The translations under genes and the position numbers were made by a program. 64,000 nt of DNA from Escherichia coli (lineage in GTDB: Bacteria > Pseudomonadota > Gammaproteobacteria > Enterobacterales > Enterobacteriaceae), in the NCBI RefSeq assembly GCF_030384885.1, contig NZ_CP128613.1, one strand, 5' to 3'. This document shows, one piece after another, positions 4,216-29,090 of the stretch; positions within the stretch are counted from its first letter, which is position 1; every line of letters starts with the position of its first letter. The notes beneath the pieces are model-generated. The model had not been told where the DNA came from, ran no database searches, and worked only from the letters and a program-made list of their open reading frames with translations.

Positions 4216-7011
4216 ATGGAGATAATTATGAGAAACCTCTGTTTCTTACTGACGTTAATGGCAACTCTGTTGCTCCCCGGGCGACTGATTGCCGCCGCCT
4301 TACCGCAGGATGAAAAGTTAATTACCGGGCAACTGGACAATGGCTTGCGATATATGATTTATCCGCATGCTCAACCTAAGGATCAGGTAAATTTATGGCT
4401 GCAAATTCATACCGGTTCATTGCAGGAAGAAGACAATGAGCGCGGCGTGGCTCATTTTGTAGAACATATGATGTTTAACGGCACAAAAACATGGCCGGGT
4501 AATAAAGTCATCGAAACATTTGAGTCAATGGGCCTGCGTTTTGGTCGCGATGTTAATGCCTATACCAGCTATGACGAAACGGTGTATCAGGTGAGTTTGC
4601 CGACTACGCAGAAACAAAATCTGCAACAAGTGATGGCAATCTTCAGTGAATGGAGTAATGCCGCAACCTTTGAAAAACTCGAAGTAGACGCTGAACGTGG
4701 CGTAATTACTGAGGAATGGCGTGCCCATCAGGATGCGAAATGGCGCACCTCTCAGGCGCGCCGCCCTTTCCTGCTGGCAAATACCCGTAATTTAGAGCGT
4801 GAACCTATCGGCCTGATGGATACTGTCGCCACGGTCACACCGGCACAATTGCGCCAATTTTATCAACGCTGGTATCAACCAAATAATATGACCTTTATCG
4901 TGGTCGGCGATATTGACAGTAAAGAAGCGCTGGCGCTGATTAAGGATAATTTAAGTAAGCTTCCGGCTAACAAAGCAGCTGAAAATCGCGTCTGGCCGAC
5001 AAAAGCCGAAAACCACCTGCGCTTTAATATCATTAATGATAAAGAAAACCGGGTGAACGGCATCGCACTCTATTATCGCCTGCCAATGGTGCAAGTGAGC
5101 GATGAGCAAAGCTTTATCGAACAAGCTGAATGGAGCATGTTGGTTCAGCTGTTCAATCAGCGTCTGCAGGAACGCATACAGTCGGGCGAGTTGAAGACTA
5201 TTTCTGGCGGCACTGCGCGCAGCGTTAGAATTGCACCCGATTATCAGTCGCTGTTTTTCCGTGTAAATGCACGAGACGATAATATGCAGGATGCTGCGAA
5301 TGCATTAATGGCAGAGTTGGCAACTATTGATCAGCATGGTTTTTCTGCTGAAGAACTCGATGATGTCAAATCTACCCGTCTCACCTGGCTGAAAAATGCG
5401 GTTGATCAGCAAGCTGAACGTGATTTACGTATGCTGACCAGTCGCCTGGCATCCAGCTCATTAAATAATACGCCGTTCTTGTCGCCGGAAGAGACATATC
5501 AACTTTCGAAACGTCTGTGGCAGCAAATTACCGTGCAAAGTCTGGCGGAAAAATGGCAGCAGCTAAGAAAGAACCAGGACGCATTTTGGGAGCAAATGGT
5601 GAATAACGAGGTTGCAGCCAACAAAGCATTATCTCCTGCGGCTATCCTGGCGCTGGAAAAAGAGTACGCCAACAAAAAGCTGGCAGCTTACATCTTCCCT
5701 GGCAGAAATTTATCGTTAACAGTAGACGCTGACCCACAGGCGGAAATTAGCAGTAAAGAAACACTGGCTGAGAATCTGACATCATTAACACTTTCTAATG
5801 GTGCCAGGGTTATTCTGGCAAAATCAGCGGGTGAAGAGCAAAAGCTACAAATTATTGCCGTATCTAATAAAGGTGATTTAAGTTTCCCTGCGCAGCAAAA
5901 ATCACTTATCGCGCTGGCAAATAAAGCGGTGAGTGGCAGCGGCGTTGGTGATCTCTCCTCTTCCAGCCTGAAACGCTGGAGTGCGGAAAACTCGGTAACC
6001 ATGAGCAGCAAAGTCAGTGGGCTGAATACGTTGCTCTCCGTGAGCGCGCGGGCTAATAATCCTGAACCTGGTTTCCAGTTGATTAACCAGCGAATCACTC
6101 ACAGCACGATTAATGACAATATTTGGGCATCGCTACAAAATGCTCAAATTCAGGCGTTGAAAACGCTAGACCAACGTCCAGCAGAGAAATTCGCCCAGCA
6201 GATGTATGAGAAGCGCTATGCTGATGATCGTACGAAATTACTGCAAGAAAAACAGATTGCACAATTTACTGCCGCAGACGCGCTGGCAGCCGATCGCCAG
6301 TTATTTTCATCTCCAGCGGATATCACGTTTGTCGTTGTCGGTAATGTCGCAGAAGACAAACTTCTGCCGTTAATTACGCGTTACTTAGGATCAATAAAAC
6401 ACTCTGATTCGCCATTAGCCGCAGGTAAACCATTAACTCGCGCGACGGACAACGCATCGATTACTGTAGAAGAACAAAATGAACCTGTGGCACAGGTTTC
6501 ACTGTGGAATCGTTATGATTCCCGGACACCTATTAATCTGGCGACACGTATGGCGCTGGATGCCTTTAACGTTGCCCTGGCTAAAGATCTGCGCATTAAT
6601 ATTCGTGAACAGGCATCTGGGGCATACAGCGTTTCTTCTCGCCTCTCGGTTGATCCTCAGGCCAAAGATATCACCCATTTGCTGGCTTTTACTTGTCAAC
6701 CAGAACGGCATGAAGAACTGTTAGCGTTAGCGAATGAAGTGATGGTTAAGCGTCTGGCTAAAGGGATCAGTAAGCAAGAACTGAACGAATACCAGCAAAA
6801 CGTTCAGCGCAGCCTCGATATCCAACAGCGTAGCGTTCAACAATTAGCGAACACCATTGTAAATAGTCTTATTCAATATGACGATCCTGCCACATGGACT
6901 GCGCAGGAGCAATTATTGAAACAAATGACGGTAGATAATGTTAACACTACGGTTAAACAATATCTTTCTCATCCGGTGAATACCTTTACCGGAGTATTAC
7001 TACCAAAATAA
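4216..7011 (+). CDS. pqqL: Periplasmic M16-family zinc protease (931 aa)
   Basis: Signal peptide; inverted zinc motif HFVEH at the N-terminus; length and sequence match remembered PqqL. Confidence 0.9.
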   Translation: MEIIMRNLCFLLTLMATLLLPGRLIAAALPQDEKLITGQLDNGLRYMIYPHAQPKDQVNLWLQIHTGSLQEEDNERGVAHFVEHMMFNGTKTWPGNKVIETFESMGLRFGRDVNAYTSYDETVYQVSLPTTQKQNLQQVMAIFSEWSNAATFEKLEVDAERGVITEEWRAHQDAKWRTSQARRPFLLANTRNLEREPIGLMDTVATVTPAQLRQFYQRWYQPNNMTFIVVGDIDSKEALALIKDNLSKLPANKAAENRVWPTKAENHLRFNIINDKENRVNGIALYYRLPMVQVSDEQSFIEQAEWSMLVQLFNQRLQERIQSGELKTISGGTARSVRIAPDYQSLFFRVNARDDNMQDAANALMAELATIDQHGFSAEELDDVKSTRLTWLKNAVDQQAERDLRMLTSRLASSSLNNTPFLSPEETYQLSKRLWQQITVQSLAEKWQQLRKNQDAFWEQMVNNEVAANKALSPAAILALEKEYANKKLAAYIFPGRNLSLTVDADPQAEISSKETLAENLTSLTLSNGARVILAKSAGEEQKLQIIAVSNKGDLSFPAQQKSLIALANKAVSGSGVGDLSSSSLKRWSAENSVTMSSKVSGLNTLLSVSARANNPEPGFQLINQRITHSTINDNIWASLQNAQIQALKTLDQRPAEKFAQQMYEKRYADDRTKLLQEKQIAQFTAADALAADRQLFSSPADITFVVVGNVAEDKLLPLITRYLGSIKHSDSPLAAGKPLTRATDNASITVEEQNEPVAQVSLWNRYDSRTPINLATRMALDAFNVALAKDLRINIREQASGAYSVSSRLSVDPQAKDITHLLAFTCQPERHEELLALANEVMVKRLAKGISKQELNEYQQNVQRSLDIQQRSVQQLANTIVNSLIQYDDPATWTAQEQLLKQMTVDNVNTTVKQYLSHPVNTFTGVLLPK

Positions 7012-7015
7012 TGAC

Positions 7016-7049
7016 GTCCCCCGTCAACATATCGTTGGCGGGGGTTTTA
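7016..7049 (+). terminator. Rho-independent terminator after pqqL
   Basis: GC stem CCCCCGTCAAC / GTTGGCGGGGG with loop ATATC, followed by TTTT. Confidence 0.6.
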
Positions 7050-7272
7050 GCAACAGACGTTATTTTATATAATAATTTTATGAATGCGTTCAAAATAACA
7101 ACCGAGTACTAATAATGATATTTTAAGGGCTAATTTTTATGTGATAATTCACCAGAGTTAGAAAGCGCGTCAAAATAATGACATACAACACCACACTACA
7201 ACCCATTACACCCTACACTATTGTTTTTTAACGTAAATATATTTTTCCCATAATATCTCACGATAAATAACA

Positions 7273-7292
7273 TTAGGATTTTGTTATTTAAA
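7273..7292 (+). promoter_or_regulatory. GAD box (GadE/GadX-type activator site) in the gadB promoter
   Basis: Exact 20-mer TTAGGATTTTGTTATTTAAA about 80 nt upstream of the gadB ATG; matches the remembered gad box upstream of gadA/gadB. Confidence 0.6.
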
Positions 7293-7371
7293 CACAAGTC
7301 CTTTGCACTTGCTTACTTTATCGATAAATCCTACTTTTTTAATGCGATCCAATCATTTTAAGGAGTTTAAA

Positions 7372-8772
7372 ATGGATAAGAAGCAAGTAACGGATTTAAG
7401 GTCGGAATTACTCGATTCACGTTTTGGTGCGAAGTCTATTTCCACTATTGCAGAATCAAAACGATTTCCGCTGCACGAAATGCGCGATGATGTCGCATTC
7501 CAGATTATCAATGATGAGTTATATCTTGATGGCAACGCTCGTCAGAATCTGGCAACGTTCTGCCAGACCTGGGACGACGAAAATGTTCACAAGTTGATGG
7601 ATTTATCTATTAACAAAAACTGGATCGACAAAGAAGAATATCCGCAATCTGCAGCTATCGACCTGCGTTGCGTAAATATGGTTGCTGACTTGTGGCATGC
7701 GCCTGCGCCGAAAAATGGTCAGGCCGTTGGCACCAACACCATTGGCTCTTCCGAGGCCTGTATGCTCGGCGGGATGGCGATGAAATGGCGTTGGCGCAAG
7801 CGTATGGAAGCCGCAGGCAAGCCAACGGATAAACCTAATCTGGTGTGCGGCCCGGTACAAATCTGCTGGCATAAATTCGCCCGTTACTGGGATGTGGAGC
7901 TGCGTGAAATCCCTATGCGCCCCGGTCAGTTGTTTATGGACCCGAAACGCATGATTGAAGCCTGCGACGAAAACACTATCGGCGTGGTGCCGACTTTTGG
8001 CGTGACCTACACCGGTAACTATGAGTTCCCGCAACCGCTGCACGATGCGCTGGATAAATTCCAGGTCGACACCGGTATCGACATCGACATGCACATCGAC
8101 GCCGCCAGCGGTGGCTTCCTGGCACCGTTCGTCGCCCCGGATATCGTCTGGGACTTCCGCCTGCCGCGTGTGAAATCGATCAGTGCTTCAGGCCATAAAT
8201 TCGGTCTGGCTCCGCTGGGCTGCGGCTGGGTTATCTGGCGTGATGAAGAAGCGCTGCCGCAGGAACTGGTGTTCAACGTTGACTACCTCGGCGGTCAGAT
8301 TGGGACTTTCGCCATCAACTTTTCCCGCCCGGCGGGTCAGGTGATTGCACAATACTATGAATTCCTGCGCCTCGGTCGTGAAGGCTATACCAAAGTACAG
8401 AACGCTTCCTACCAGGTTGCCGCTTATCTGGCGGATGAAATCGCCAAACTGGGGCCGTATGAGTTCATCTGTACCGGTCGCCCGGACGAAGGCATCCCGG
8501 CGGTTTGCTTCAAACTGAAAGATGGTGAAGATCCGGGATACACCCTCTACGACCTCTCTGAACGTCTGCGCCTGCGCGGCTGGCAGGTTCCGGCCTTCAC
8601 TCTCGGCGGTGAAGCGACCGACATCGTGGTGATGCGCATTATGTGTCGTCGCGGCTTCGAAATGGACTTTGCTGAACTGTTGCTGGAAGACTACAAAGCC
8701 TCCCTGAAATATCTCAGCGATCACCCGAAACTGCAGGGTATTGCCCAGCAGAACAGCTTTAAACATACCTGA
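7372..8772 (+). CDS. gadB: Glutamate decarboxylase beta (466 aa)
   Basis: Protein begins [19 protein letters not shown]; the ORF-track entry 7303-8772 is over-extended at its N-terminus; ATG at 7372 is preceded by AGGAG. Confidence 0.93.
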
Positions 8773-8792
8773 TAACGTTTAACGGTAACGGT

Positions 8793-8818
8793 GTCCCGAA
8801 ACGAATCCGTTTCGGGAC
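8793..8818 (+). other. Stem-loop in the gadB-gadC intergenic region, no U-tract
   Basis: Perfect inverted repeat GTCCCGAAACG-AATC-CGTTTCGGGAC; the following sequence is not T-rich, so this is more likely an mRNA processing or stability element than a terminator. Confidence 0.45.
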
Positions 8819-8927
8819 AATTTCCAAAGTCTGTTCACTGGCATTAGCAACGGAAAATATTGTTCTGAATGTGCTTCAGAACAAAACAGGTGCGGTTCCG
8901 ACAGGAATACCGTTTTAGGGGGATAAT

Positions 8928-10463
8928 ATGGCTACATCAGTACAGACAGGTAAAGCTAAACAGCTCACATTACTCGGATTCTTTGCCATAACGGCGTCGA
9001 TGGTAATGGCTGTTTATGAATACCCTACCTTCGCAACATCGGGCTTTTCATTAGTCTTCTTCCTGCTTTTAGGCGGGATTTTATGGTTTATTCCCGTGGG
9101 GCTTTGTGCTGCGGAAATGGCCACCGTCGACGGCTGGGAAGAAGGTGGTGTCTTCGCCTGGGTATCAAATACTCTGGGGCCGAGATGGGGGTTTGCAGCG
9201 ATCTCATTTGGCTATCTGCAAATCGCCATCGGTTTTATTCCAATGCTCTATTTCGTGTTAGGGGCACTCTCCTACATTTTGAAATGGCCAGCGTTGAATG
9301 AAGACCCCATTACCAAAACTATTGCAGCACTCATCATTCTTTGGGCGCTGGCATTAACACAGTTTGGTGGCACGAAATACACGGCGCGAATTGCTAAAGT
9401 TGGCTTCTTCGCCGGTATCCTGTTACCTGCATTTATTTTGATCGCATTAGCGGCTATTTATCTGCACTCCGGTGCTCCCGTTGCTATCGAAATGGATGCG
9501 AAAACCTTCTTCCCTGATTTCTCTAAAGTCGGCACCCTGGTTGTGTTTGTTGCCTTCATTTTGAGTTATATGGGGGTAGAAGCTTCCGCAACCCACGTCA
9601 ATGAAATGCGCAACCCCGGTCGCGATTATCCGCTGGCGATGTTACTGCTGATGGTGGCGGCAATCTGCTTAAGCTCTGTTGGCGGCTTGTCTATTGCGAT
9701 GGTTATTCCGGGTAATGAAATCAACCTCTCAGCAGGGGTAATGCAAACCTTTACCGTTCTGATGTCACATGTGGCACCGGAAATTGAGTGGACGGTTCGC
9801 GTGATCTCCGCACTGCTGTTGCTGGGTGTTCTGGCGGAAATCGCTTCCTGGATTGTTGGCCCTTCTCGCGGGATGTATGTCACCGCGCAGAAAAACCTGC
9901 TGCCAGCGGCGTTCGCTAAAATGAACAAAAATGGCGTACCGGTAACGCTGGTTATTTCGCAGCTGGTGATTACTACTATCGCGTTGATCATCCTCACCAA
10001 TACTGGTGGCGGTAACAATATGTCCTTCCTGATCGCCCTGGCGCTGACGGTGGTGATTTATCTGTGTGCTTATTTCATGCTGTTTATTGGCTACATTGTG
10101 TTGGTTCTTAAACATCCTGACTTAAAACGCACATTTAATATCCCTGGTGGTAAAGGGGTGAAACTGGTCGTGGCAATTGTCGGTCTGCTGACTTCAATTA
10201 TGGCGTTTATTGTTTCCTTCCTGCCGCCGGATAACATCCAGGGTGACTCTACCGATATGTATGTTGAATTACTGGTCGTTAGTTTCCTGGTGGTACTTGC
10301 CCTGCCCTTTATTCTCTATGCTGTTCATGATCGTAAAGGCAAAGCGAATACCGGCGTATCTCTGGAACCAATCAACAGCCAGAACGCACCGAAAGGTCAC
10401 TTCTTCCTGCACCCGCGTGCACGTTCACCACACCATATTGTGATGAATGACAAGAAACACTAA
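8928..10463 (+). CDS. gadC: Glutamate:GABA antiporter (511 aa)
   Basis: Polytopic membrane protein; matches remembered GadC; directly downstream of gadB. Confidence 0.92.
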
Positions 10464-10489
10464 CCATGTCTGAATGGTAATAACACAAG

Positions 10490-10518
10490 GGAGCGATAAT
10501 TCATCGCTCCCTTTTTCA
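10490..10518 (+). terminator. Rho-independent terminator after gadC
   Basis: GGGAGCGAT-AATT-CATCGCTCCC followed by TTTTTC. Confidence 0.65.
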
Positions 10519-10593
10519 TGCCTGTTGTCGTATTGACTTAACCGGGATAAGTACGAGAATGAGCGCACATCTGTTTACCGGAAACCAGCATAT

Positions 10594-11913
10594 ATGGATA
10601 TCTGCTCCCGAAACGTGAAATTAGCGATTAGAAGACCAGCGGCACTGGTTGCACTGGCACTTTTACTGAGTAGTTGTAAAAGCACGCCTCCAGATTCAAT
10701 GGTGACACCACCAGCAGGCTCAAAGCCACCAGCCTCGGCGCAACAATCATCACAACCGATGCGCGGCATCTGGCTGGCCACGGTGTCTCGCCTCGACTGG
10801 CCACCGGTTTCCTCGGTTAACATTAGTAACCCCACCAGCCGGATCCGCGTACAACAACAGGCGATGATCGACAAGCTCGATCATCTGCAACGTCTCGGTA
10901 TAAACACGGTCTTTTTCCAGGTCAAGCCGGACGGTACCGCACTATGGCCATCGAAAATTTTGCCGTGGTCCGATCTTATGACCGGTAAGATTGGCGAAAA
11001 CCCGGGTTACGATCCGTTGCAATTTATGCTCGACGAAGCCCACAAGCGTGGGATGAAAGTACACGCCTGGTTTAACCCTTACCGCGTATCGGTTAATACA
11101 AAGCCTGGTACTATCAGGGAACTGAATAGCACCCTGTCTCAACAACCGGCCAGCGTCTATGTGCAACACCGCGACTGGATAAGAACGTCGGGTGATCGGT
11201 TTGTCCTCGACCCAGGCATCCCTGAGGTTCAGGACTGGATCACATCAATAGTCGCGGAAGTGGTTTCCCGCTATCCGGTAGATGGCGTGCAGTTTGACGA
11301 CTATTTTTATACTGAGTCGCCGGGCTCACGGTTAAATGATAACGAGACGTACCGCAAATACGGAGGCGCATTTGCGTCAAAAGCAGACTGGCGGCGCAAC
11401 AATACCCAGCAGTTAATTGCGAAGGTTTCGCACACCATTAAAAGCATTAAGCCGGAAGTCGAATTTGGCGTTAGCCCGGCAGGCGTGTGGCGTAACCGAT
11501 CACACGATCCGCTCGGTTCTGATACCCGAGGCGCGGCAGCCTATGACGAATCCTACGCTGACACGCGCCGATGGGTGGAACAAGGATTGCTGGATTACAT
11601 TGCCCCCCAAATTTACTGGCCATTCTCGCGGAGTGCCGCGCGTTATGACGTGTTGGCAAAATGGTGGGCGGATGTCGTAAAACCAACTAAGACCCGCCTG
11701 TATATCGGTATCGCCTTCTATAAAGTGGGTGAACCTTCAAAGATAGAACCAGACTGGATGATTAACGGTGGCGTACCGGAACTGAAAAAGCAGCTCGATC
11801 TTAACGATGCTGTACCAGAAATCAGCGGCACAATCTTGTTCCGTGAGGACTATCTGAACAAACCTCAGACTCAACAAGCGGTCAGCTATTTGCAAAGTCG
11901 TTGGGGCAGTTAA
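10594..11913 (+). CDS. yddW: Lipoprotein, putative glycosyl-hydrolase-like (439 aa)
   Basis: Signal peptide with lipobox LLSSC; matches remembered YddW. Confidence 0.85.
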   Translation: MDICSRNVKLAIRRPAALVALALLLSSCKSTPPDSMVTPPAGSKPPASAQQSSQPMRGIWLATVSRLDWPPVSSVNISNPTSRIRVQQQAMIDKLDHLQRLGINTVFFQVKPDGTALWPSKILPWSDLMTGKIGENPGYDPLQFMLDEAHKRGMKVHAWFNPYRVSVNTKPGTIRELNSTLSQQPASVYVQHRDWIRTSGDRFVLDPGIPEVQDWITSIVAEVVSRYPVDGVQFDDYFYTESPGSRLNDNETYRKYGGAFASKADWRRNNTQQLIAKVSHTIKSIKPEVEFGVSPAGVWRNRSHDPLGSDTRGAAAYDESYADTRRWVEQGLLDYIAPQIYWPFSRSAARYDVLAKWWADVVKPTKTRLYIGIAFYKVGEPSKIEPDWMINGGVPELKKQLDLNDAVPEISGTILFREDYLNKPQTQQAVSYLQSRWGS

Positions 11914-28934: not shown

Positions 28935-29090
28935 TCTTTAACAATCAGTCCTCAATGACGATTAAACACCATTGCCTGCGCAATGGTGTTTTTGTTTTTA
29001 ACTGCTTTATACTTGGAGCCGACGCCCTGGCGGTAAAGCAAAGACGATAAAAGCACCCCAGGGATGGATATTCAAAAAAGAGTGAGTGAC

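Follow-up and report, generated by a model that had tools for sequence, protein, structure and literature searches.

A conserved sense-strand hairpin in the gadB-gadC spacer of Escherichia coli lies at a mapped mRNA 3' end

The gadBC operon is the main system for survival of extreme acid in E. coli and Shigella, and studies of its regulation have centred on promoters and transcription factors. Its two genes are separated by a spacer of 155 nt, and the question raised by the locus is whether this spacer carries an element that acts on the mRNA itself. A reading made from the letters of the sequence alone (the sequence-only reading) had proposed that a stem-loop located there may be an mRNA stability or processing element that sets the GadB:GadC ratio. 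The window analyzed here is a stretch of 64,000 nucleotides from E. coli, in which the gene order is pqqL (4216-7011), gadB (7372..8772, + strand, 466 aa), gadC (8928..10463, + strand, 511 aa) and digH/yddW (10594-11913), with both gad coding sequences taken from open reading frames and annotation. The operon ends at an intrinsic terminator (10487..10518, + strand) that has an 11-bp stem, a U run and a dG of -18.1 kcal/mol. In one E. albertii strain (CP117606.1; 3733-4191 of the extracted locus) a gene for a Y1 transposase of the IS200/IS605 type is found between gadC and digH, beside this terminator hairpin. Positions 7000-9000 of the window are a 100% match to E. coli strain 2013C-4282, and identity with K-12 is 96.4% for gadB, 96.5% for gadC and 85.8% for the pqqL-gadB spacer; by these values the strain is fairly distant from K-12.

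Upstream of gadB, the 20-bp GAD box, the GadE/RcsB activator site of the gadBC promoter, is present as the exact sequence TTAGGATTTTGTTATTTAAA at 7273..7292 (+ strand). It is the single exact site in the 64-kb window (0.01 expected by chance), with no second site at up to three mismatches in the same window. By homology with the K-12 start at 1572073 (SMRT-Cappable-seq, operon b1493 and b1492), which lies 28 nt 5' of the ATG, transcription of gadBC would begin at 7344 (+ strand). The box is then at about -71 to -52 from the transferred start, in agreement with an expected range of roughly -50 to -70. Relative to the ATG it occupies -99 to -80 at the K-12 gadA, K-12 gadB, E69 and E. albertii loci alike. 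It is exact in all promoter-containing Escherichia gadA and gadB loci examined except E. albertii gadB, which has one mismatch; the E. albertii gadA box is exact and has the offset seen in K-12. At Hafnia, Yersinia, Edwardsiella and the other GadB loci examined the box is missing. From about 7251 down to the ATG (aligned 7251-7374) the promoter differs from K-12 by a single base, and conservation in the pqqL-gadB spacer has a sharp boundary about 22 nt 5' of the box: the approximately 240 nt further upstream (7012-7250) have only about 80% identity with K-12, with indels. GadE-RcsB has been reported to bind the GAD box and to activate gadA and gadBC (PMC8989999). The exact 20-mer announced by the sequence-only reading is thus in place, and its view that acid regulation is probably conserved, although right, is textbook knowledge. 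Judged by sequence and offset, with no difference from the K-12 gadA and gadB boxes, this is the known GadE-RcsB site, expected to work as in the literature, and because it is already known it adds nothing new.

The gadB-gadC spacer contains a different kind of feature. An inverted-repeat search and RNA folding identified a perfect 12-bp stem with the loop AATC at 8792..8819 (+ strand), in the gadB 3' UTR and intercistronic region, referred to here as hairpin 1. Its arms (8792-8803 and 8808-8819) are 12 nt each and 100% complementary across the 4-nt loop, and the element begins 19 nt 3' of the gadB stop and ends 108 nt 5' of the gadC start. The RNA fold has a dG of -20.7 kcal/mol (z = -4.5), a value equalled by none of 200 shuffles. 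The earlier description of a perfect 11-bp stem ending at 8818 was accurate as to perfection, while the stem is 12 bp long and ends at 8819. Its statement that a U-tract is lacking also holds: the stem is followed by AUUUCCAAAG, with just three U residues, or three in the eight nucleotides AUUUCCAA, and a consensus terminator scan made no + strand call at hairpin 1. Scanning of 6900-10700 with the Rfam 15 covariance models gave no match in 8773-8927, even at E <= 10.

Perfect hairpins of this size are rare by chance. For stems of at least 12 bp, two were observed in the 64-kb window against 0.03 expected from dinucleotide shuffles. For stems of at least 10 bp the whole window holds six distinct hairpins; the shuffle mean is 0.46, and by that same count the window scores 11, not six, because several loop lengths can be counted for one hairpin. 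Three of the six are hairpin 1, the gadC terminator and a second spacer hairpin described below. The other three are located at 28964-28991, 32683-32710 and 58009-58031 and include, for example, the 12-bp stem AAACACCATTGC-CTGC-GCAATGGTGTTT.

The sequence-only reading had named 3' end mapping as one way to check its proposal, and uniform read-through with no 3' end at the stem as the outcome that would speak against it. Such an end has been mapped. In the K-12 Term-seq data a 3' end is recorded at 1570594(-) with a mean of 33817 reads (Adams 2021, PMC7815308, supplementary file 1, M63 sheet), and the surrounding sequence reads ...GGTGTCCCGAAACGAACCCGTTTCGGGACAATTT up to the end and CCAAAGTCTG after it (Adams 2021, PMC7815308). 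The hairpin 1 region of the present strain is identical to that of K-12 save one loop base, and transfer by alignment places the end at 8823, the third U after the stem and 4 nt past it, at the close of the AUUU tail (8820..8823, + strand). The end was filed as 'orphan' (Adams 2021, PMC7815308), since the cut-off for 'primary' ends was 50 bp and this one lies 51 nt past the gadB stop. In the same data the gadC terminator end, 1568900(-), has a mean of 70553 reads (PMC7815308), so that the reads at hairpin 1 come to about half of those at the end of the operon. Counted from the start at 1572073, the corresponding RNAs would measure approximately 1480 nt (gadB only) and 3174 nt (gadBC). Both ends were called in M63 glucose only, and neither 1570594 nor 1568900 in LB at OD 0.4 or 2.0 (PMC7815308); for gadA, no 3' end was called in this study (PMC7815308). 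The bicyclomycin set of Adams (LB, OD 0.5), in which gadBC is poorly expressed, has no entry at hairpin 1. SMRT-Cappable-seq lists only the two-gene unit and no gadB-only unit, though gadBC was probably little expressed in the cultures used. The literature searched contains no description of hairpin 1 or of gadB-only versus gadBC transcripts, and no RIL-seq or half-life data.

A 3' end in this position might be produced by termination. The main rival to the interpretation favoured below is that hairpin 1 is a leaky intrinsic terminator or attenuator, at which partial release at the A-UUU tail yields a gadB-only transcript and reduces transcription of gadC. The GC-rich hairpin, the location of the end inside a short U run 7 nt past the GC core CGGG, and the presence of two abundant 3' ends, one at hairpin 1 and one at the operon terminator, all fit partial termination, and the ACAAUUU stretch would be expected to form a weak RNA-DNA hybrid. 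The small number of U residues after the stem, the silence of the consensus scan and the lack of a gadB-only primary transcript in SMRT-Cappable-seq argue in the opposite direction, as does the variation of the tail among species that is described next. Leaky termination is possible but doubtful; it and a barrier to exonucleases are not mutually exclusive.

Conservation of hairpin 1 was evaluated first within E. coli. The spacer of the present strain differs from K-12 at 3 of 155 nt, all in the loops of the two spacer hairpins, a divergence of 0.019 compared with 0.125-0.127 for the four-fold degenerate positions in gadB and gadC. With the K-12 hairpin as a 45-nt query, 5406 E. coli records were returned, 3595 of them identical and 1811 with one or two mismatches. 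Six of the mismatched variants were sampled, and all of their changes fell in the loop (AAGC, CACC) or in the pair that closes it (ACACCC); a metagenome scan added one further variant, shared with E. marmotae, that has a G-U closing pair. The loop at 8804-8807 is hypervariable (AATC, AACC, AAGC, CACC, CTCT, CTCC) and the stem is fixed. Neutral drift could account for this variability, or the hairpin loop could be a hot spot of mutation.

The most informative comparison is with E. albertii, in which a hairpin of much-changed sequence (GCCCCGGG...CCCGGGGC) is found at the same place. Ten of its 24 stem bases are not those of E. coli. They account for three compensatory pairs (U-A to C-G once, A-U to G-C twice), for one G-U pair, and for the loss of pairing at two places, the outermost pair of the stem and one close to the loop. 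The predicted stability is nevertheless kept, with a dG of -20.6 kcal/mol in E. albertii against -20.7 in E. coli. When 8 or 10 random changes were introduced into the E. coli stem in silico, only 1-3 of 5000 mutants were as stable as the E. albertii hairpin, which corresponds to a simulation p of about 0.0002-0.0006. In the aligned sequences, all of the compensatory changes are on a single branch, that of E. albertii. Beyond this genus, GadB proteins are 78-89% identical to that of E. coli, but the antiporter encoded next to them shares only about 32% of its residues with GadC; the spacers are therefore not homologous outside Escherichia, and the covariation test is confined to Escherichia. 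The closest GadB proteins from other genera are those of Hafnia (89%) and Yersinia (82-86%), and the antiporters that go with them match E. coli GadC at only about 32%; in the sample, Mesopusillimonas has the nearest GadC (71%), whereas its GadB is only 60% identical. From these identities the gadBC operon looks mosaic in make-up.

The variants also bear on the strand. On the sense strand, all 12 of 12 distinct variants fold with a dG between -18.1 and -20.7 kcal/mol. In the present strain the antisense fold is as stable as the sense fold (-20.6), but G-U substitutions weaken it to -15.9 in E69 and -14.5 in E. marmotae, a cost of 3.3-3.7 kcal/mol to the antisense strand. Because the G-U variants fit the sense strand only, hairpin 1 is best described as a sense-strand RNA element and not as a DNA palindrome or an antisense structure, and the pattern points to selection on the RNA structure of the gadBC mRNA. 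These observations weigh on a further alternative, namely that hairpin 1 is a DNA-level palindrome, either the site of a dimeric protein or a remnant of recombination or of a mobile element, or else the terminator of an antisense transcript. The perfection of the 12-bp repeat and the equal stability of the antisense fold in this strain would be compatible with it. However, an operator recognized by its sequence would be expected to keep its bases, and here the bases change while the pairing is kept; the G-U pairs are mismatches both on the other strand and in DNA, and the minus strand has no T-run after hairpin 1. Strandedness, covariation and the missing T-run led us to reject a DNA operator or an antisense terminator. 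Membership in a REP/BIME or mobile-element family was likewise rejected, because across 5405 genomes the median copy number of hairpin 1 is 1, and it is no REP-type remnant. Taken as a whole, this alternative is very improbable.

The nucleotides after the stem follow another course. In E. coli the tail is AAUUUCC; E69 and E. marmotae share AAAUUCC, and E. albertii has AAACUCC. Since these U residues vary while the stem persists, the conserved feature is the stem and not a terminator U-tract, which is a further argument against leaky termination as the source of the end.

The remainder of the spacer, which forms the gadC 5' leader (8824..8927, + strand, from the alignment), includes the sequence AAGTCTGTTCACTGGCATTAGCAA and the Shine-Dalgarno sequence AGGGGG. 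The former lies within 8824-8859, just 3' of hairpin 1, and is invariant from E. coli to five E. albertii strains, with a C>T change in three other E. albertii strains. Over the Escherichia comparisons the spacer diverges by 0.019-0.168 against 0.125-0.41 at gadB and gadC four-fold sites, that is, 2-7 times more slowly, and the whole-spacer fold (dG -50.8) is more stable than its shuffles (z = -4.0). The second hairpin, hairpin 2 (8860..8884, + strand), has a 10-bp AU-rich perfect stem, the loop TGTGC and a dG of -10.9; read on the minus strand, where TATTTTCC comes after it, it was called terminator-like. It was considered as a second conserved structure and rejected, its pairs being broken in E69 and E. 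albertii without compensation, and covariation in the spacer is restricted to hairpin 1. A long-range interaction between the AUUUCC tail and the gadC Shine-Dalgarno was also rejected, since one minimum-energy fold has it and the consensus fold does not.

These data allow an assessment of a reading in which the structured spacer as a unit, hairpin 1 included, serves mainly to protect the untranslated 155 nt against Rho or RNase E, or to adjust the translation of gadC, with the 3' end being no more than a by-product of decay. The stability of the whole spacer relative to shuffles, its slow evolution and the minimum-energy pairing between tail and Shine-Dalgarno speak for such a reading. Against it, covariation is seen in hairpin 1 alone, the hairpin 2 pairs are lost uncompensated, and the consensus fold is without the tail-Shine-Dalgarno pairing. 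We regard this reading as improbable.

Taking the evidence together, we lean slightly towards the interpretation that hairpin 1 is a selected sense-strand RNA structure which fixes the 3' end of a gadB-only mRNA, and protects that end, alongside the full-length gadBC mRNA. In the mechanism we propose, RNA polymerase would mostly continue through hairpin 1 into gadC. RNAs that have ended or been cut in the spacer or in gadC would then be trimmed in the 3'-to-5' direction, and the exonucleases would stall at the 12-bp stem. The primary ends might be made by an endonuclease, by transcription that stops prematurely further downstream, or by polymerases that now and then release the RNA at the weak AUUU tail. 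After trimming there would remain a stable gadB message of about 1.48 kb, with its end about 4 nt past the stem, alongside the gadBC mRNA of about 3.17 kb. The expected outcome would be more gadB message than gadC message, which would suit a soluble decarboxylase that is abundant and an antiporter in the membrane that is less so, and an effect on the GadB:GadC ratio may follow. The 3' end at so stable a hairpin could also be a passive decay intermediate. If the proposal is true, the supply of much decarboxylase and little transporter from one promoter would be explained by a gadB-only message, and a function would be assigned to an 'orphan' 3' end in public Term-seq data. The gadB hairpin would then represent ordinary operon fine-tuning, a modest refinement of a well-studied operon and not a new principle.

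Hairpins of similar design occur after other gad genes. Homology between gadA and gadB ends directly after the stop codon, at TGATAAC, and K-12 gadA has in the gadA-gadX spacer its own unrelated hairpin without a U-tract, with a 14-bp stem (ACCGAATGCCCAGC...GCTGGGCATTCGGT). Yet another is found after gadA of Escherichia sp. E1V33, with the same architecture and a non-homologous sequence. Very strong U-tract-less hairpins are also present between the decarboxylase and antiporter genes of Hafnia paralvei, Yersinia ruckeri and Mesopusillimonas (dG -27 to -37; z -3.4 to -6.6). At most loci of Yersinia and Edwardsiella the spacer is short and has no such hairpin. One could speculate that hairpin 1 is a selected and possibly condition-dependent switch, acting as a partial terminator or as a dock for an RNA-binding protein, which uncouples decarboxylase from antiporter and belongs to a convergent stoichiometry rule shared with the unrelated hairpins of E. 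coli gadA, Hafnia, Y. ruckeri and Mesopusillimonas; we consider this broader proposal unlikely.

How does hairpin 1 compare with known elements? Steady-state RNA 3' ends that directly follow a stable stem-loop with no U-tract form a recognized class, in which the stem-loop protects against PNPase and RNase II (PMC6061677). Hairpin 1 shares with these protective stem-loops (Dar & Sorek 2018, PMC6061677) a stable stem without a U-rich tail and a precise 3' end a few nucleotides on. It differs from them in being inside an operon, upstream of a co-transcribed gene, and in having no excess of C over G downstream: positions 8820-8927 contain 18% C and 24% G, and an excess of C over G begins only within gadC, at about 8960. 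The stretch is thus neither rich in C nor poor in G, and the Rho loading site typical of the Dar-Sorek class is not evident directly behind hairpin 1. Hairpin 1 resembles the terminator at the end of its own operon in that its GC-containing stem is about as long and as stable and is likewise followed by a mapped 3' end; what sets it apart is the tail, where three U residues stand against five in the gadC terminator and vary in the sister species. The stable GC-containing stem of an intrinsic terminator is therefore present, but the U-rich tract immediately 3' of it is not. The remaining comparison is with intercistronic hairpins that stabilize mRNA and give differential expression within an operon, such as the malE-malF REP, papB-papA and the Rhodobacter puf operon. 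As in these, hairpin 1 lies 3' of the cistron expected to be more abundant, an RNA comprising only the upstream cistron ends at it, and the structure is conserved between the cistrons, as the compensatory pairs and the restriction of E. coli polymorphism to the loop indicate. Unlike the malE-malF element, it is single-copy and not a REP, and for gadBC differential stability is a prediction. Hairpin 1 is accordingly an uncharacterized example of a familiar kind of element, whose 3' end has been public yet unannotated.
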